Positions 6,806 through 58,761 of a DNA stretch of 64,000 nt are shown piece after piece. The number at the start of each line of letters is the position of its first letter. The stretch's first letter is position 1. Under the pieces are notes generated by a model. It was not told the DNA's origin. It searched no databases and was given only the letters and a program-made list of their open reading frames with translations. The stretch comes from Eledone cirrhosa. Taxonomy: Eukaryota. The translations under genes were made by a program, and so were the position numbers. The stretch spans positions 298,964,001 through 299,028,000 of the forward strand of contig OZ024740.1 of NCBI GenBank assembly GCA_964016885.1, read 5' to 3'.

Positions 6806-9661
6806 ATCATCATCATCATCATCATCGTTTAACATCCATATTCCACGCTTGCATGGGTTTGGACGGGAGTTTTCCCACTTGAGGCAAGAGTGGTTGTCTT
6901 GCTCGCATAGGACTGTCTGGCGGGTTTTCTACGGCTGGATGCCCTTCCTAATACCAACCACATTTACAGTGTGGAACTGGGAGGTTTTTACCGTGTTACC
7001 TACACGGCCACATTACACCGTGGACTTTGTGTTTTTTTTTGTCGGGACACCTACACAACCTCATTTGCTTCGGGCTGGATGTTGTGGTACCAACATAACT
7101 TTACATTGAAAGGGGTGGTGTGGATGAGGTGGGGGTAGTGGGACGGGGGGTGTATTTTGTTAGAGGTGCCTACTGACTGTAGTAGGTTTCACTTTGTACT
7201 TAGGTAAGGCGGGTCTTCTCTATTACTGTGTAGCGCCAAAGCTCTTGGTCCAGTGACATTGTCTTGGAGAGGTGTAAGTGTGTGAGGTCGGAATTTATCA
7301 AGTTGTCCTAGGTTTTTCTGGGTCTGCCTACTCCGTGGCTACCGTCTATTTTTATTGCCCTGCACTTTTTTATACAGCTGTCGTCTTTCATGCGCATCAC
7401 GTGACCATACCAACGTAGCCTTCTCTTGAGTAAACAACATCTGATCCCTCTTATTTCTAATTTTTCCCTTAGTTCGTTTATGCTTTGCTGTTCACGTATA
7501 TTACTATTACACATCCAGCGGAGCATGCAAGCTTCGTTCCTCTCCAGTCTGCGTATATCCTCTGCACACAATGCCCAGGTCTCACTGCCATGCAACATTG
7601 TTGTTCGTATGCAGGTATCATACAGCCTGCCTTTCATTTTTAGGGAGAACCCTTTAGCGGCCAATAGTGGTATAAGCTCTCTGAACTTTTTCCATCCAGT
7701 TCTGACTCTAGCTACTGTACTTTTAGAGCACCCTCCCCCACTGCTGATTTTGTCACGCAGGTAACGGAAGCTGTCCACTATTTCTATAGAACCATCTGTG
7801 CAATGGAATGAGCTAGTATTTTGTGGGCACTTGCTGCTACTTATTGCACCAGAGCACCGGCCACATATAAAACCTATGTTCTTAGTTAGTTTACCTGTGA
7901 TCCCACTACATCTTTTATGCACCCATACTTTGCATTTGGGACATAAAATGGAGTTTCTACCTACTCCTTTCCTACACACTGAGCATGGCCATTTCCCGGA
8001 TGGGACCGGCGCCCTATTTTCCTTCCTACAAACTAGAACTTTAGTCTTAGACAGCTTAATTTTAAGGCCTTTTGATTCTGGGCCATGCTTCGATGTTTGG
8101 AATTTCTTCTCTAGTTCGGCCATTGATTCAGCTATGAGCATTAGATCATCTGCGTATAGGAGTTCCCACAGGCAGCCGGTCTTGAACTCCACTGTTATAG
8201 CCTGAAGGGCGATAATAAATAGTAGGGGGTCTAAGAACGGAGCCCTAATGAACACCAACTTTTACGCTAAACTCTTCACTATATTCGTTGTTAATTCTAA
8301 CCTTGCTAACTATTTCTTTATACATGGCTTGTATAGCTCTCACAAGCCATTCATCAACACCTAGTTTTCTAAGAGCCCACCAGATAATGGAACGGGGGAC
8401 TCTGTCGAAGGCTTTCTCCAAGTCGACAAAAGCTAAGTATAGGGGTTTACTATAAGCTAGGTACTTCTCCTGTAGTTGTCGTACAATGAAAAGAGCGTCT
8501 GTGGTACTTTTGCCTGACACAAACCCGAACTGCATTTCATCTAGATCAATTCTCTCTCTGATTAGTTGCGCTATTACTTTTTCTGTGACCTTCATAACCT
8601 GGTCGATTAATTTAATGCCTCTATAGTTACCCCTATCTAGGGCATCTCCTTTACCCTTGTAGCAGTTAATGATGATGCTGCTATGCCAGTCCTTCGGAAC
8701 GACCCCATTCTGTATGACTTGGTTTACTATCCGGGTGACCATAGTGTGTCCCACCGTTCCAGATGCTTTCAGCATTTCGGCAACTATTTCCGAAGGCCCA
8801 GCCGCCTTACCCGTCTTCATATCTTTGATTGCCTTACTTATTATACTACCTTCGACTAGCACTGCTGGTCCCTCTATTGGATCGATGTGGGGGAGACTGT
8901 CTTTCTCCCATTTATTCTCCTCATTTAGTAGCCTTTTGTAGTGACACTTCCAAGCTACCTTCTTATCAGCGTCAGTGATGGCAAGTACACCATCATCATT
9001 AAGGACACACTTCTCCCCGACAATATCACTGTTTTCCTTGACACATTGCCTAGCAATCCTGAACACCTCACGTTTTTGGTCCTCGCGTTGTAGAACATGC
9101 TTGAACTTTCTTTCCTCTGCTTCCCTTCTTGCGAAGTACACTTGTCTCCTAGCTTCCCTCCTGGCCACTTGATAGTCTTCTCTACTTCCCCCATCCCGAC
9201 ATGCTTTCCAAGCCTGCTTTTTGGCCTTGATTGACCTCTCCACCTTACTGTTCCACCACCAAGTTACTCTCCTCCTGCCTATAGGCCTGCTCCAGCCACA
9301 GGTTTCATCTGTCACCTTCAGCAGGTTAGCTTTCAGGAATTTCCACTGTTCCTCTATATTGTACGACTCTAATTGCTCTTCCTTACTATCAAAAGCATCA
9401 ACTAATATGCTTTTAAATTTATGACTGGCTGTGGGGTCCTTTAATTTCCATATTTTTCTCCTGAGGATAGTCCTCTTCTGTTGTCGAATACGTTTCGTCC
9501 TGACTATGAGGTCGCTGATTATGATCTATGTTGAGACGTGCATTCTTCATGGGGGCGGGATTTAGTATTTACAACAGACACTCTGTCACGTCTCCTGGTA
9601 AGGATATAATCTACCTGGCTTGTGTGTTCCCCCGATCTATAGGTGATCAAGTGATTGTCTC

Positions 9662-10335: not shown

Positions 10336-11195
10336 ATCATCATCATCATCAACGTTTAACGTCCGTGTTCCACGCTTGCATGGGTTTGGACGGGGGTAGT
10401 CCCACTTGAGGCAAGAGTGATTGTCTTGCTCGCATAGGACTGTCTGGCAGGTTTTCTACAGTTGGATGCCCTTCCTAACACCAACCAGATTTACAGTGTG
10501 GGTCTGGGAGGTTTTTACCGTGTTGCCTACACGGCCACATTACAGCGTGGACTGTGTGTTTTTTTGTCGTGACACCTACACGATCTCATTTGTTTCGGCC
10601 TGGATGGCGTGGCACCAACATAACTTTACATAGAACGGGGTGGTGTGGATGGGGTGGGGGTGGTGGTGGTGGACCGGGGTGTATTTTGTTAGAGATGCCT
10701 ACTGGCTGGAGTAGGTTTTACTATATATTTAGGTAAGGCGGGTCTTCTCTGTTACTGAGTACCGCCAAAGGTCTCGGTCCAGTGACATTGTCTTGGAGAG
10801 GTGTAAGTGTGTGATGTCGGAGTTTATCAGCTCGTCCCAGGTTTTTCTAGGTCTGCCTATTCCGTGACTACCGTCTATCTTTATTGCCCTGCACTTTGTT
10901 ATACAGCTATCGACTTTCATGCGCATCACATGTCCATACCAACGTAGCCTTCTCTCGAGTAAACAACATCTGATCCCTCTTATCTCTAATTTTTTCCTTA
11001 GTTCGTTTATGCTTTGCCGTTCACGTATATTACTGTTACACATCCAGCGGAGCATGCAAGCTTCGTTCCTCTCTAGTCTGCGTATATCCTCTGCACACAA
11101 TGCCCAGGTCTCACTGCCATGCAACATTGCTGTTCGTATGCAGGCATCGTACAACCTGCCTTTCATTTTTAGGGAGAACCCTTTAGCAGCTAATA
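10336..11195 (-). mobile_element. RTE LINE 3' fragment
   Basis: C-terminal ORF ([15 protein letters not shown]...EKTRLT), 3' UTR and (GAT)n tail; near-identical to the 3' end of the adjacent + copy. Confidence 0.95.
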
Positions 11196-11230
11196 TATAT
11201 ATACATATATATATATACATATATATATGT

Positions 11231-13538
11231 AAAGTTCAAGCATGTTCTACAACGCGATGACCAAAAACGTGAGGTGTTCAGGATTGCTAGGCAATGCGTC
11301 AAGGAAAACCGTGATATTGTCGGGGAGAAGTGTGTACTAAACGACGATGGCACACTTGCCATCACCGACGCTGATAAGAAGGTAGCTTGGAAGTGTCACT
11401 ATGAAAGGCTCCTAAATGAGGAGCATAATTGGGAGAAAGGCAGTCTCCCCCATATCGACCCAATAGAGGGACCAGCAGTGTTAGTCGAGGGGAGTATAAT
11501 AAGTAAGGCAATCAAGGATATGAAGACTGGTAAGGCGGCTGGGCCTTCGGAAATAGTTGCTGAGATGCTGAAGGCATCTGGCACGGTGGGACACACCATG
11601 GTCACCCGCATAGTTAACCAAGTCGTACAGAACGGGGTTGTTCCGAAGGACTGGCATAGCAGCATCATCGTTAACTGTTATAAGGGTAAAGGAGACGCCC
11701 TAGATAGGAGTAACTATAGAGGCATTAAATTAATCGACCAGGTCATGAAGGTCACGGAAAGAGTAATAGCGCAACTAATCAGAGAGAGAATTGACCTAGA
11801 TGAAATGCAGTTCGGGTTTGTGTCAGGCAAAAGTACCACAGACGCTCTTTTCATAGTACGACAACTACAGGAGAAGTACCTAGCTAAAGGTAAACCCCTC
11901 TACTTAGCTTTTGTCGACTTGGAGAAAGCCTTCGACAGAGTCCCCCGCTCCATTATCTGGTGGGCTCTTAGAAAACTAGGCGTTGACGAATGGCTTGTGA
12001 GGGCTATACAAGCCATGTATAAAGAAACAGTCAGCAAGGTTAGAATTAACAACGAATATAGTGAAGAGTTTAGCGTAAAAGTCGGCGTCCATCAGGGCTC
12101 TGTTCTCAGTCCACTACTATTTATTATTGCCCTTCAGGCTATAACAGAGGAGTTCAAGACAGGCTGCCCATGGGAACTCCTATACGCAGACGACCTGACA
12201 CTCATAGCGGAATCAATGGCCGAGCTAGAGAAGAAATTCCAAACATGGAAGCACGGCCTAGAGTCAAAAGGACTTAAAATTAACCTGGCTAAGACCAAAG
12301 TACTAGTTTGTAGGAAAGAAAACAAGGCGGCGGTCCCTTCTGGGAAATGGTCGTGCTCGGTGTGTAGGAAAGGCGTAGGTAGAAACTCCATTTTATGTGC
12401 TAAATGCAAAGTATGGGTGCATAAAAGATGTAGTGGGATCACAGGTAAGCTAACTAAGAACATAGATTTTACATGTGGCCGGTGCTCTGGTGCAATAAGT
12501 AGCAGCAAGTGCCCACAAACTACTAGCTCTTTCAATTGCGCAGAGGGTTCTATAGAAATAGTGGACAGCTTCCGTTACCTGGGCGATAAAATCAGCAGTG
12601 GGGGAGGGTGCTCTGAAAGTACTGTAGCTAGAGTCAGAACTGGTTGGAAAAAGTTCAGAGAGCTTATACCACTATTAGCTGCTAAAGGGTTCTCACTAAA
12701 AATGAAAGGCAGGTTGTACGATGCCTGCATACGAACAGCAATGCTGCATGGCGGTGAGACCTGGGCATTGTGTGCAGAGGATATACGCAGACTAGAGAGG
12801 AACGAAGCTTGCATGCTCCGCTGGATGTGTAACAGTAATATACGTGAACGGCAAAGCATAAACGAACTAAGGAATAAATTAGAGATAAGAGGGATCAGAT
12901 GTTGTTTACTCGAGAGAAGGCTACGTTGGTATGGACACGTGATGCGCATGAAAGTCGATAGCTGTATAACAAAGTGCAGGGCAATAAAGATAGACGGTAG
13001 TCACGGAATAGGCAGACCTAGAAAAACCTGGGACGAGCTGATAAACTCCGACATCACACACTTACACCTCTCCAAGACAATGTCACTGGACCGAGACCTT
13101 TGGCGGTACTCAGTAACAGAGAAGACCCGTCTTACCTAAATATATAGTAAAACCTACTCCAGCCAGTAGGCATCTCTAACAAAATACACCCCGTCCCACC
13201 ACCCCCACCCCCACCCAATCCACACCACCCCGTTCTATGTAAAGTTATGTTGGTGCCGCGCCATCGAGGCCGAAACAAATGAGATCGTGTAGGTGTCACG
13301 ACAAAAAAACACACAGTCCACGCTGTAATGTGGCCGTGTAGGCAACACGGTAAAAACCTCCCAGACCCACACTGTAAATGTGGTTGGTGTTAGGAAGGGC
13401 ATCCAACTGTAGAAAACCTGCCAGACAGTCCTATGCGAGCAAGACAATCACTCTTGCCTCAAGTGGGACTACCCCCGTCCAAACCCATGCAAGCGTGGAA
13501 CACGGACGTTAAACGTTGATGATGATGATGATGATGAT
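11231..13538 (+). mobile_element. RTE LINE, 5'-truncated, RT portion intact
   Basis: 621-aa open frame 11274-13139 with RT motifs ([30 protein letters not shown]); (GAT)n tail into (TA)n. Confidence 0.95.
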
Positions 13539-15720: not shown

Positions 15721-15983
15721 AAAGACTACAGAGTATTTAGAAGAATACATATTTTTAGTATGAAAATAATTCACTGATTAGGCAATTTAAAACGAACTCA
15801 TTGGAAATAATCGGTTTATCACTCAGCTACTTATGACATGGAACACCTCAAAGCTGTATTGAAAATTCTGCTGATGAGATTGTGTTTATAATTGAAACAC
15901 AGTCCTATTTTATTTGATATATATATATATATATATATAAATATATGTGTGTGTGTAAATATATATTCATATCTATACTTGGG

Positions 15984-17993: not shown

Positions 17994-18453
17994 TAATTTA
18001 TTAACCTGCCATTGAACCACATTGGCATATGGTTGGACAATACATGTGTCCCTTAGCGCTTTGTGCGTGTAGGAACACATATCCTATTATTACTATACTC
18101 CTCTATGTTGAGAAAAAATTTGGTCGACTGCTGCTAGTGATAGTGGTGGCCGATTGACCTACCTCCCTCTGCCTCTATCTTTACTTTCGGCCCTTGAAAA
18201 AATTGATTCCACTTCATTTACTCTCATCTCGGGAAGAGTTTTGGATAGCGCTAGTTCGTAATTTAAATTCAAGAATTTTATATTCTTCGAATGAAAAGAA
18301 CCTTCTGACGAGAATCTTTCTTTGCAACGAAGGCCGTATGGTCTCCGTTTATTTTTGAGATTCGAAACCGATTCAGTAAAGGTAACTATAGTAAGTAAAG
18401 TCAATTTTTTAAAATTTATTTTGAAACTTTTTCATTATTTGCTAAACCTGATT
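17994..18453 (+). mobile_element. Retrozyme-like non-coding element, copy A (about one monomer)
   Basis: Homologous along its length to 43828-44391; contains a hammerhead; TA repeats on both sides. Confidence 0.75.
18300..18383 (+). ncRNA. Type I hammerhead ribozyme
   Basis: ACCTT-CTGACGA-GAATCT...AGATTC-GAAA-CCGATTCAG-TA-AAGGT; stems I and II pair, GUA cleavage triplet. Confidence 0.8.
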
Positions 18454-18744
18454 ATATATATATATATATGTGTGTGTGTGAGTGGTGTGTGTGTTTGCAT
18501 GCATGAGTGTTGGTGTGTGAGTGGCGTGTGTGTTTGTATGCATGAGTGTTGGTGTGTGAGTGGCGTGTGTGTTTGTATGTATGAGTGTTGGTGTGTGAGT
18601 GGCGTGTGTGTTTGTATATATGAGTGTTGGTGTGTGAGTGAGTGTGTGTGTGTGTGTGCGGGAGTGTCAATAAGTGTTTTTTTTTATGACCATGCTGTAA
18701 AATGGAGGGGTAGAGAGGGGCCATGAGTCCAGTAAGACATCCTC

Positions 18745-20984: not shown

Positions 20985-21064
20985 ATCAGCCACTGATGAG
21001 CAAGAATTGGTATTTCTATTCACAATTAATATTGCGAAACAGCACCAAGAGCTGTCTGGGTGAT
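20985..21064 (+). ncRNA. Type I hammerhead ribozyme
   Basis: ATCAGCCA-CTGATGA-GCAA...TTGC-GAAA-CAGC(ACCAAGA)GCTG-TC-TGGGTGAT; canonical core, GUC cleavage after 21056. Confidence 0.85.
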
Positions 21065-21354
21065 TGGTAGTTACCACAATTCCGGTTTGTATTTATTTTC
21101 TTGATTTTTTCTTAAATTGAGACAGGCGAACCCTATTGTCTATAGTTAGTATTCTTTTCACCTTAGCGAATCTGGTCCCTTGCGATTTGAACACATATAT
21201 GTATATATCTGTGTTCGTTTTTCTTTTATATTCAATTATTATATATATATATAAGTATTGAAGTTTCCGTTGAAAATTGAAAAAGTCATAGGAGTGAAGA
21301 GTGCTCTATGTAAGTACCAGAGCTAAATTTAATGTATAATAAACAATACAATAT

Positions 21355-21432
21355 AATTACCTCATTTCCAGAGGTTTCCTGAATAAAAGGAATACGAAAA
21401 ACGTCCTCATTCGTTCATCGGACAAGGCAATT
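21355..21432 (-). ncRNA. Type I hammerhead (CCGAUGA core) in left pLTR arm
   Basis: AATTGCCTTGT-CCGATGA-ACGAATGAGGA...TCCTTTTATTCAG-GAAA-CCTCTGG-AA-ATGAGGTAATT; U16.1 mutated. Confidence 0.65.
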
Positions 21433-22566
21433 TAAGTCATAGTGAAATATTTGAAAAATCTCCTCAAGAAAGGCAAGTGTTTAACGGGCAAAAAAAAATA
21501 TAAAGCAAGAGATATATAAAAATAAGGAAATATAGTTAGGGTATGTGTATAAATGTGTATATATTCACTCACAAATGTACATATGTGTGTATGTACAAAT
21601 GCATGTGTATAGTGAAAATGTGTGTGTGCGTAAGAACGTATATGAGGGCAAGCATAATAGTTTATATAATATAAGTTGAAAAATAATGTACATCCAGATT
21701 TAGGTATTAAATATATACACATACAAGTATGAAAGCACGCGTATAAACACACACGCACGATCATTTATATGCGGAAGATAAAAAGGGAAGGGAGTGTATT
21801 AGTCAAAAAGAGTGTCATATTCGATACATATAAAAATGAAACAATATATGAGAAAGAAAAAAAATTTGTTTAAATCAAAGAGAAAGTAAGAGAGAGGGGT
21901 TATCAATTATAAATTAACACGAGAGAAAAAGAAAACAAATATAGGTTCGCACGTACGCACACATACATATAAAAATATATATATATATGAATACGTACAG
22001 GCAAAAGCGCATGCATACGTACATACATACACACGAAGCACACATCTATATATACATATATCGCAGCACTTATATCTAAGTACACGTACGTACGCGACTA
22101 TATACATACATATATGCATACACACATACATACATATACATATACATATATATATACATATACTTATACACATACGTTCACCCACTCGTAAAAATATAGA
22201 TATAAAAACACACATGCTCACACATATAGACACACACACGCAGGCGCATGCACACTCACACGCATAGATACAAAATATAGACCAGCCATATGAAAAAAAA
22301 AAATACAAATATAAAAGCGGCTGCGAAACAACAGAATATATCTGGAGTTGAAAACGCAAGTGAAATGTGATATCAGGTAATGAAAGAAAATGGGGAAGTA
22401 AAGTATGGAATGTGAAGATATTAGGTGAGTGAATCAAAAAGTAGGGGGGGGGGGGGTCACTGGTGGATGTGAAGTGAAAATAAAAATGAAAATAAAGTTA
22501 AAATGAAAGTAAATCAGAAAGAGAATCTGTAAAGAGGATAATTTAAGGAAAGTGAAGAACAAGAGT

Positions 22567-22900
22567 TTATGGAGGATAAGTATCAGAAAGTGAGTTAAGT
22601 TTATATGAGCTGGAAAGCAAGTGTGATTTCATGTGTGGGCAACTGGTGAAAATATCTGTTTTTGTATTTAGGCAGGTTTTTGGTGATTTAAGGTTCTGTA
22701 AAATCCAATATTTTTCACTTATGCAGAGTGTGCTTCTTCTTGCATATTCTTTAGATTGGTTCAAAATTGACCAATCCAATTTATATTGGATATCTTGGTC
22801 TTTCAAATCCCATATTCTGCTAGCCAGAGCTGTTGTAAATCTTTTTTCTGGGTGTCGGAAAGATGCGACATGTGAGTAATAACGCGTTTTGAATTTGAGT
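22567..22900 (-). pseudogene. GIY-YIG endonuclease C-terminal part of a Penelope-like ORF
   Basis: FKTRYYSHVASFRH..TALASRIWDLKD..YKLDWSIL..LCISEKYWIL..LNTKTDIFTSCPH matches the PLE endonuclease C-terminal pattern. Confidence 0.8.
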
Positions 22901-24106
22901 GATAACGCGTTGTTACTTGAATTTGAGTGAAAACGCCTTGTGAGTAATAACGCGTTTTGAATGTGAGTAATAACGTTTTGAATGTGAGTAATAACGCGTT
23001 TTGAAAGATGCGACATGTGAGTAATAACGCGTTTTGAATTTCATTTTTAACTTTATTTTCATTTTTATTTTCACTTCACATCCACCAATGACCCCCCCCC
23101 CTACTTTTTGATTCACTCACCTAATATCTTCACATTCCATACTTTACTTCCCCATTTTCTTTCATTACCTGATATCACATTTCACTTGCGTTTTCAACTC
23201 CAGATATATTCTGTTGTTTCGCAGCCGCTTTTATATTTGTATTTCTTTTTTTCATATGGCTGGTCTATATTTTGTATCTATGCGTGTGAGTGTGCATGCG
23301 CCTGCGTGTGTGTGTCTATATGTGTGAGCATGTGTGTTTTTATATCTATATTTTTACGAGTGGGTGAACGTATGTGTATAAGTATATGTATATATATATG
23401 TATATGTATATGTATGTATGTGTGTATGCATATATGTATGTATATAGTCGCGTACGTACGTGTACTTAGATATAAGTGCTGCGATATATGTATATATATA
23501 TGTGTGCTTCGTGTGTATGTATGTACGTATGCATGCGCTTTTGCCTGTACGTATTCATATATATATATTTCTATATGTATGTGTGCGTACGTGCGAACCT
23601 ATATTTGTTTTCTTTTTCTCTAGTGTTAATTTATAATTGATAACCCCTCTCTCTTACTTTCTCTTTGATTTAAACAAATTTTTTTTCTTTCTCATATATT
23701 GTTTCATTTATATATGTATCGAATATGACACTCTTTTTGACTAATACACTCCCTTCCCTTTTTATCTTCCGCATATAAATGATCGTGCGTGTGTGTTTAT
23801 ACGCGTGCTTTCATACTTGTATGTGTATATATTTAATACCTAAATCTGGATGTACATTATTTTTCAACTTATATTATATAAACTATTATGCTTGCCCTCA
23901 TATACGTTCTTACGCACACACACATTTTCACTATACACATGCATTTGTACATACACACATATGTACATTTCTGAGTGAATATATACACATTTATACACAT
24001 ACCCTAACTATATTTCCTTATTTTTATATATCTCTTGCTTTATATTTTTGTTGCCCGTTAAACACTTGCCTTTCTTGAGGAGACTTTTCAATATTTCACT
24101 GTTTTA

Positions 24107-24167
24107 AATTGCCTTGTCCGATGAACGTATTCGTATTATTCGGGAAACCTCTGGTAATGAGATAATT
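24107..24167 (+). ncRNA. Type I hammerhead (CCGAUGA core) in right pLTR arm
   Basis: AATTGCCTTGT-CCGATGA-...-GAAA-CCTCTGG-TA-ATGAGATAATT; stem II partly deleted. Confidence 0.65.
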
Positions 24168-24297
24168 ATATTGTATTGTTTATTATACATTAAATTTAGC
24201 TCTGGTACTTACATAGAGCACTCTTCACTCCTATGACTTTTTCAATTTTCAACGGAAACTTCAATACTTATACAGCTCCCAAGGGAATGATCGTAGC

Positions 24298-24440
24298 AGT
24301 GCATTACTGGTACTTTATTTTATCGACCCCGTAAGGATGAAAGGCAAAGTCAACCTCGGCGGGATTTGAACTCAGACCGTTAAGGGACGTAACTATGCTG
24401 GAAAGCATGGCGTCCGACCCTCTACCGATACTGCCAATCC
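24298..24440 (-). mobile_element. SINE family A
   Basis: Reverse complement of the family A core and head. Confidence 0.8.
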
Positions 24441-24529
24441 AATGGAAACTATATTTATAAAACCATATTTATTTCATTATACATATTTCAAGCGCTGTCG
24501 AGCGCTTTATATTATAACTGAAAAATAAT

Positions 24530-53720: not shown

Positions 53721-54043
53721 ATAGGTGGGCGAAGAAAAAGAAGAAGAGAAGAGAGGAATATATTACGTATTCTGTGTATAACAATACAACAGGTGTATGT
53801 ATCGCACGTTTTTCAACTGACTTTTCATAATCAATTTAATTTTAATGACTATAATCAGCTGTATGAAACAATAAGGACACAAGTTGGCGAGTGAGTTTCT
53901 AACAACACACACATGCACACATACACATGCACACAGACATACACTCACACCCACACACATGCACACGCACACGCACGCATGCACACACACATGCACACTG
54001 GATGGAGGTGCATGGCCACCGGCTTATCACAATGATTGCTTAA

Positions 54044-54092
54044 GAGTCTGACGAAGTCACATGAATAACCATGTAACAGAAATATATATAAT
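54044..54092 (+). ncRNA. Degenerate hammerhead-like motif
   Basis: CTGACGA-AGTCACATG(AATAAC)CATGTAACA-GAAA-TATATA-TA; stem I does not pair well. Confidence 0.3.
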
Positions 54093-54139
54093 GCACTAAA
54101 CAATTATGGTGATTTAATCCCATCTTAGCCACCAGCATT

Positions 54140-54240
<101 letters not shown>

Positions 54241-54263
54241 AGCCTTCATTACGTTTATTGATT

Positions 54264-54348
54264 GGTGACGCGCGTTTCGCTATTGATTAGCTCATGGTTC
54301 GATCTGTATCGATCTGGCCCGACTCTGGAATCAAAAGCTCATCGGACC
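54264..54348 (-). ncRNA. Type I hammerhead with palindromic stem III (CCGAUGA core)
   Basis: GGT-CCGATGA-GCTTTTGATT...AATCAATAGC-GAAA-CGCGCG-TC-ACC. Confidence 0.75.
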
Positions 54349-54408
54349 TCTGCTGTATATATATATATATATACAGCAGAGGTTAATCACCTGTTTAGAC
54401 ATTCTCTA

Positions 54409-54455
54409 TGCTCCGATGATTCCAGACTTCCCTCTGGAAGAAACAAATGTCAGCA
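54409..54455 (+). ncRNA. Minimal type I hammerhead (CCGAUGA core)
   Basis: TGCT-CCGATGA-TTCCAGA(CTTCCC)TCTGGAA-GAAA-CAAATG-TC-AGCA. Confidence 0.75.
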
Positions 54456-54495
54456 AATAAATGTATTAAATTAAGATTTGATTGCTTTAACACTT

Positions 54496-54544
<49 letters not shown>

Positions 54545-54834
54545 TAAAAAAGTTTCATACACTTAACATGTGCGACCATTGGTTTCTGAGTCCAGTTATG
54601 GCCACTGCTGTATATTAGAGGAGGCACCTTTAAACTGATATCTAATCTACACACACACACACACATTAACATTGTGTTTAAGGCTTGTAAAATGTACTGT
54701 CAATTATTATGGGTGTATACATGTTCTTCACAGACCCCTTTCTTTTCTTTTTACAATGCTGTGTACAATGTTCAGTAGTGTTGGAAATGAAATCAAACCA
54801 CAGGAAAACTATCCCTTTATAAAGTAGGAGGGTT

Positions 54835-57839: not shown

Positions 57840-58490
57840 GAAACAGCGGCTTCTCAGAGAAAAATTCATACTCTCCAGACCATTACCCAAAAGCGAACAT
57901 GGAAAAGGCCAAATACACTGTCCGGTCCTATACGCTTTCACCTTTAACGTTAAAACTAATGTAGGTATACATTTTATTTGCACTTACAGATATACAATTC
58001 CACCAAATTCTTAACTGCCACACAGTTAAAATAGGACATTCCTTTGTTAGAAATATGGAATCCTGCTTCTTAAATAAACACCCGAGCCCGCAAACATTTG
58101 GAGGCTTACATAAAAGCCAGATACATGCCCGTTTGATCAACTGTGTAATATTTCAGCTGTAATATACGAGGCTGGTGTTACATCAAAAAGAAACCTATAC
58201 ATATGTAGGCATGTTGGAGAGTCGATTTAAAAACCATTTCCTAAATCAGGAAACTACTTTCAGACATTCGATCGAGAGGAAATCCTCGAAGCTGGCAAGC
58301 AAATTATGGAATCTCAAGGGCATAAAATAGAAAATACTCGAAAATTCAAGACTCTATATAAACAGATCGCAACTTGCAATTTACTCACCGATGAAAGGTG
58401 GTTTATCATTCTACCAATAAAAGATTCTTAAACACCCGTCTTAGATGTTTGTATCGTTGTCCTCACGCTTTTAAGTACCTTTTGAAGAGA
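57840..58490 (+). pseudogene. Penelope-like ORF relic: linker plus GIY-YIG endonuclease
   Basis: FNVKTNVG..FHQILNCHTVKIGHS..NM..CPFDQLC..AVIYEA..TYVGML..FKNHFLNQETTFRH..KLASKLWNLK with frameshifts. Confidence 0.75.
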
Positions 58491-58761
58491 TGGCCCACTT
58501 GGATTTTTATCTTTCTGTTATTTACCTATCATCTACCATAGAGTCCTCTCCTTTTTAGAATTACCTCCCTTTATACAGTAAATTATTTCTCTGTAAATTA
58601 AATTCCCTTAAATCCCAGAACTCTCATGTTTTCTTCTACCTGCTTTTCTCCAACCGGAAATTCTCTTTTTCTTTGAAGCACTTCAAGTTGTATAAGTTGA
58701 GTTCGCTCAACGAAACACGTTTCTCCGTATTTTCGTTGCAGTTTGGTAATTTGTATATATA

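Follow-up and report, generated by a model that had tools for sequence, protein, structure and literature searches.

Minimal hammerhead ribozymes are mostly dispersed single motifs that cleave weakly and as dimers, and in the Penelope-like elements (PLEs) of Schistosoma such motifs are described on opposite strands, 100-700 bp apart (PMC4209133). The Hydra-clade C-terminal EN+ PLEs insert in (TA)n and carry a hammerhead near their 3' end (PMC8557442). PLEs also tend to insert beside earlier copies (PMC6765202), and the experiments reported for a purified PLE protein describe nicking of AT-rich DNA on both strands, with a PLE hammerhead whose cleavage requires the protein and which insertion in vitro does not need (PMC11167929). 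For Penelope of the rotifer Adineta vaga, palindromes (18 and 38 bp) at head-to-head junctions are said to be common and are attributed to self-priming (PMC3846280). Among viroid-like circular RNAs, the symmetric clusters are reported with type III hammerheads and 73-83% pairing (bioRxiv 10.1101/2022.07.19.500677).

The locus considered here lies in a stretch of 64,000 nt from Eledone cirrhosa (GCA_964016885.1, contig OZ024740.1, positions 298,964,001 to 299,028,000), referred to below as the window, which is AT-rich animal DNA heavy in microsatellites. Two hammerhead motifs, A and B, diverge there from a palindromic TA core and are accompanied by two neighbouring units, C and D, which an earlier note on this DNA had overlooked. 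The feature is real and is most likely a local example of known PLE behaviour.

Two hammerhead motifs on opposite strands

A minimal type I hammerhead was defined by the boxes C(U/C)GANGA, GAAA and NUH in this order, together with three stems closing in stem I, and both A and B have the ordered boxes and the three stems, with a U4C core. Hammerhead A (minus strand, 54264-54348; G10.1-C11.1, predicted cut after 54267) has a stem I of 3 bp (GGT/ACC), the core CCGATGA at 54345-54339 and a stem II of 3 bp that, if one mismatch is allowed, reaches ~9 bp and encloses an insert of ~40 nt, followed by GAAA, the palindromic stem III ACGCGCGT at 54275-54268 and GTC. Hammerhead B (plus strand, 54409-54455; U10.1-A11.1, predicted cut after 54451) has a stem I of 4 bp (TGCT/AGCA), the core CCGATGA at 54413-54419, a 7-bp stem II at 54420-54439, GAAA, the stem III ACA/TGT and GTC. 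Within the stem II insert of A, a short sequence duplicated imperfectly in tandem (54305-54324, minus strand) forms a hairpin of its own, and long stem II inserts are also present at 20993, 44234 and 61631.

The two CCGATGA hammerheads are thus present on opposite strands as the earlier note described them, and they make up two of the four matches (A, B, 35326 and 44234) that a strict minimal-hammerhead descriptor, composed after the motifs had been seen, gives in the window, against a mean of 0.013 and a maximum of 1 in 150 block-wise dinucleotide shuffles, of which 0/150 contain a divergent pair within 200 nt. These counts speak against a chance resemblance in AT-rich repetitive DNA, a reading to which the lack of any score from the Rfam hammerhead models and the weak local fold z-scores of the motifs (-0.7 to -1.4) lend something, but which is hardly credible. 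Nothing reaches the gathering score of Rfam across the window, and the 34 matches at E<=10 in 54000-54800 include none to hammerhead families; minimal forms may lie outside the coverage of these models. The miRNA-type matches in Rfam reflect the palindrome only and were rejected.

The monomeric hammerhead fold is the predicted ground state of neither A nor B. The ensemble penalty of the active fold is 9.8 kcal/mol for A and 4.8 kcal/mol for B as isolated units, 3.2 kcal/mol for the core of B alone, and 16.2 (A) and 14.0 (B) kcal/mol in read-through RNAs of 261 nt. The energy of a stem III homodimer is -13.5 kcal/mol in the case of A, where this stem is self-complementary, and a poor -2.1 kcal/mol in that of B. 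The ribozymes would be weak, and in the parent element they might act as dimers or be aided by protein; at this locus they are probably passive.

The U4C variant in both cores, which the earlier note also saw in a pLTR at 21355/24107, is confirmed and is present as well at 21421 (minus strand) and 24118 (plus strand). It is a known natural variant whose activity is lowered in vitro and which is tolerated in a viroid (PMC3088659). It is absent from the Hydra/Chlamys hammerhead table of PMC8557442 and from the supplementary files of PMC4209133 that were searched. In the literature searched, no report was found of U4C in PLE hammerheads or of a CAGCAG-headed unit, and work on dimer-cleaving PLE variants may list U4C. 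Core-variant strings retrieved nothing on PLEs, judged by title or abstract start, the listings on octopus and cephalopod ribozymes held nothing on this motif, and a search for head-to-head inverted hammerhead retrotransposons returned no paper. Three distinct hammerhead sequences within a single window carry U4C, and descriptors fixed on CUGANGA would miss them.

The TA-bounded cluster and its CAGCAG heads

The layout of the cluster is D-> (TA)47 <-A (TA)9 B-> (TA)22 <-C. Units A (54237-54355, minus strand, 119 bp) and B (54374-54497, plus strand, 124 bp) are short CAGCAG-headed elements with a TA tract at both ends and the hammerheads described above. From cut site to TA tract the tail measures 30 nt in A and 46 nt in B, and in both an AATAAA (54254-54259 and 54456-54461, respectively) lies <=15 nt past the predicted cut. 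The (TA)22 tract at 54498-54541 separates the tail of B from that of unit C (54542-54610, minus strand), a decayed third unit with a CAGCAG head and a broken 5' core box, which keeps the 3' half of a hammerhead with GAAA, stem III and GTC intact (54574-54586). On the other side, the (TA)47 tract at 54143-54236 lies between the tails of A and D. Unit D (54040-54142, plus strand) is a possible older hammerhead remnant, picked by eye and not recovered by the scans, with CTGACGA at 54048, a stem II-like hairpin and GAAA; its stem I does not close, it has no CAGCAG head, and it ends at (TA)47. Units C and D miss the definition of a hammerhead in the 5' box or in stem I. In each unit a hammerhead or its remnant is followed by a tail of 30-50 nt and this by (TA)n, and successive units face in opposite directions.

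The palindromic core reported earlier at 54346-54383 was borne out as a perfect palindrome of 38 bp, with a 10-bp arm from the head of A, (TA)9 at 54356-54373 and a 10-bp arm from the head of B. A and B have in common only this 10-nt head and the core words; A also matches stem II of B over 10 nt, which was discounted because 179 of 2350 background windows do as well. Because A and B are not detectably related outside the head and the core words, the palindrome amounts to two identical 10-nt heads and a self-complementary TA tract. It is possible that A and B are inverted pieces of one element carrying two tandem hammerheads, a reading opposed by this background-level likeness and by the third headed unit, C, which adjoins them. 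In bacterial and archaeal genomes, a collection uninformative for an animal repeat, the palindrome had one match (L001 301-342), a terminator-like hairpin whose spacer differs and which lacks a hammerhead core; it was set down to chance.

CAGCAG follows the end of a TA run in 3 of 1992 cases in the window, and all three are A, B and C. The end of the head forms the 5' strand of stem I in A and C and closes a small hairpin in B. This role in stem I or a hairpin suggests that the head may be native to the units, and its confinement to one cluster suggests that it may have been copied across junctions. No second copy of A or B was found in the window by blastn, which gave 7 rows at E 3.1, self included, after rows containing TA runs had been dropped, and no target-site repeat apart from TA surrounds A and B. 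Beyond C, the sequence bears a weak resemblance to the 5' portion of B (p 0.46 in local and 0.028 in end-free global comparison), and a second pair like A and B at C and beyond is not established.

The similarity between B and C bears on a different reading, in which B, (TA)22 and C form one TA-flanked inverted element (fold-back or MITE-like) of ~237 bp with CAGCAG terminal inverted repeats, A having been added later by copying the head. In inverted orientation B and C are weakly similar and possibly related (one of 11 pairs tested; shuffle p 0.003), with a score matched by 13 of 4097 background windows, and their TA-flanked ends starting with CAG recall Tc1/mariner transposons, which duplicate TA and have ends of this kind. 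The terminal match is, however, just 6 contiguous bases, several indels and substitutions separate B from C, and the hammerhead cores and the window-wide pattern of a hammerhead followed by TA would be left unaccounted for, so that this element is decidedly doubtful.

A and B could also belong together as one fixed non-autonomous PLE-derived element, A + (TA)9 + B, with two divergent ribozymes, which moved as a unit and from whose TA core transcription may run in both directions. The heads are identical at 10 of 10 positions, U4C is present in both cores, the window has no headed units outside this cluster, the plus strand folds slightly better than palindrome-keeping shuffles, and a rotifer pLTR is described with a TATATATA box that can be read both ways (PMC3846280). 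On the other hand, C has the head but no partner resembling A or B, and the fixed element would have only TA as a target-site repeat and no second copy in the window; it is regarded as unlikely. That it is, beyond this, a mini-element of ~260 bp transcribed in two directions with both strands cleaved, in other words an ambisense retrozyme, is improbable.

Hammerhead remnants and TA tracts across the window

A tract of (TA)6 or longer lies <=200 nt downstream of the hammerhead remnant in 4 of the 6 cases found by scans and in 10 of 13 when picks made by eye, 7 of the 13 listed, are included. Outside the cluster, 6 of 9 remnants lie <=200 nt upstream of such a tract (p 1.8e-4; background 12% of 4000 positions), and a tract that near is present on the 5' side of 1 of these 9. 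Among the other bare heptamers, 6 of 31 fall within the same 200-nt threshold. A hammerhead near the 3' end abutting (TA)n, which served as the test for a PLE pseudo-LTR, was found in A and B. The output of a repeat finder on the window was dominated by microsatellites, and an inverted-flank count over 364 TA tracts, in which A/T-only repeats dominate, was set aside.

The region 21250-24272 consists of two arms of ~1.26 kb, inverted and 96.6% identical, with a short tandem repeat in the centre, and is a head-to-head PLE-type insertion. The U4C hammerhead remnants at 21421 and 24118 occupy the outer ends of this inverted repeat and face outward, so divergent hammerheads already arise in this window from ordinary inverted insertion.

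Other repeats of the window were recorded alongside these. Two TA-bounded hammerhead units, at 43825-44391 and 17994-18469, are 81% identical over 489 nt, and the 44-kb copy is retrozyme-like, its two ends carrying a direct repeat of 74 nt that begins immediately behind the hammerhead. Hammerhead-like motifs with a U4 core are present at 15871, 20993, 35326, 61631 and 62682, the last of which (minus strand), lying 120 nt from a TA tract, has the look of a typical PLE 3' end. The window also contains several copies of LINEs, recognised by Pfam (RVT_1 and endonuclease), which gave matches in 7 of the 20 frames scanned; in four related copies, at 35885-39142, 32304-35045, 11187-13139 and 7308-9525, the arms are 92-95% identical and the reverse-transcriptase core is immediately followed by a PHD finger. 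A short recurring repeat, for example at 24290-24450, presumably resembles an octopus SINE, and 40000-43500 is ~3.5 kb of almost pure A/T microsatellite with a GC content of 6-8%.

A frameshifted endonuclease (GIY-YIG) remnant at 57.9-58.4 kb resembles Hydra-clade PLEs by eye. Three of its four weak phmmer matches look, again by eye, like a Hydra-like endonuclease (E 1e-4 to 9e-4), and the top match is an unrelated TPR protein; Pfam gave no endonuclease match and a word search was empty. A decayed hammerhead-like stretch near 58700 comes after this remnant (57880-58760). No PLE reading frame (RT and GIY-YIG) adjoins A, B or C, whose parent element may be located elsewhere.

The probable explanation is that A, B, C and, likely, D are separate non-coding PLE pieces gathered in one TA microsatellite, each inserted in turn by a PLE protein acting in trans. 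As to their type, the units would be solo pLTRs, 3' ends or monomeric retrozyme-like copies, of 69-124 bp. A PLE protein with a GIY-YIG endonuclease and a reverse transcriptase, probably Hydra- or Neptune-like, would nick the TA tract, and a hammerhead-bearing RNA end would be copied into the nicked tract, repeatedly. Since a TA tract reads alike on both strands, either orientation of insertion would be accepted, and a head-to-head meeting of two units that share the 10-nt head would create the palindrome. The shared head could be the conserved 5' end of related mini-elements or a fold-back or template-switching copy made during the insertion of A, both of which fit the sequence here. It might be held against serial insertion that a common family might be expected to insert elsewhere too, yet the headed ends are confined to the cluster.

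Comparison with circular RNAs and described elements

From the interpretation given in the earlier note, the hammerheads, the U4C cores and the link to pLTR-type motifs are retained, and the ambisense viroid-like circular RNA, which has neither a second copy nor terminal redundancy here and whose rod-like fold mostly vanishes when the palindrome is controlled for, is not supported. The fold z-score of the plus strand goes from -7.3 to -2.4 with the palindrome held fixed (2/150 shuffles), and with the palindrome so held that of the minus strand is -1.5 (13/150 shuffles). An integrated DNA copy of such an RNA (retroviroid-like), with one hammerhead per polarity, would fit the presence of ribozyme motifs in both polarities, one per strand within 261 nt, the pairing of each hammerhead with the antisense of the other in the predicted fold (36 cross-arm pairs) and the 70% of bases paired when the circle is closed through the TA tracts. 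Outside the palindrome, however, pairing is 60-63%, the arm duplex is within the shuffle range, being equalled by 36 of 300 shuffles, and any two inverted hammerheads cross-pair via their common core words. Moreover, the known symmetric clusters have type III hammerheads whereas A and B are minimal type I, and the neighbours C and D on the same strands are decayed, with mismatched stems. Head-to-tail tandem repeats each with a hammerhead, the test for an active retrozyme, were not found at this locus, and with one intact cut site per strand and no repeated monomer the DNA cannot release a unit-length RNA. The integrated viroid-like copy is very improbable.

Opposite-strand hammerhead pairs in animal DNA can mimic ambisense viroid-like RNAs, and the very short TA-bounded units (69-124 bp) with a common 5' head may be of specialist interest. 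If A and B travel together and both cleave, they would make up an animal element whose DNA encodes ribozymes of both polarities. Such an element, if true, would be relevant to the proposed origin of viroids from retrozymes, and an ambisense retrozyme would be a link between the retrozymes derived from PLEs and the symmetric viroid-like RNAs.

With the symmetric viroid-like RNAs and the retroviroid CarSV, as described in bioRxiv 10.1101/2022.07.19.500677, the locus shares a hammerhead per polarity and a similar total length, and it differs from them in that neither a circle nor a repeated monomer is evident and in a rod fold that depends on the TA palindrome. Like the animal non-LTR retrozymes, of which monomeric copies exist, the units are non-coding and PLE-derived with a type I hammerhead, but they form no tandem repeat, alternate in orientation and measure 69-124 bp compared with monomers of 220-390 bp (PMC7229834; bioRxiv 10.64898/2026.07.22.740005). 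The pLTR junctions of Adineta vaga have the same divergent orientation, junction palindrome and TATA-like core, although the inverted copy there is the same pLTR, whereas A and B differ outside head and core (PMC3846280).

Compared with the PLE pseudo-LTR hammerheads described in PMC4209133, A and B have C4 instead of U4 and a common 10-nt head, B has U10.1-A11.1 where G-C is usual, and no reading frame is attached here; A and B share with these minimal type I hammerheads the short stems I and III and the AU-rich flanks. As for the Hydra clade, its cores listed in PMC8557442 are all U4, no ORF is present at this locus, and by eye there is no match to the octopus family Hydra-1_Obim beyond the stem III motif. 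The (TA)n target, the hammerhead tens of bases from the 3' end, the stem III of 3-4 bp and the T at 10.1, which is common in that clade, are shared, and the stem III of unit C, compared by eye, is letter-identical to that of Hydra-1_Obim (PMC8557442).
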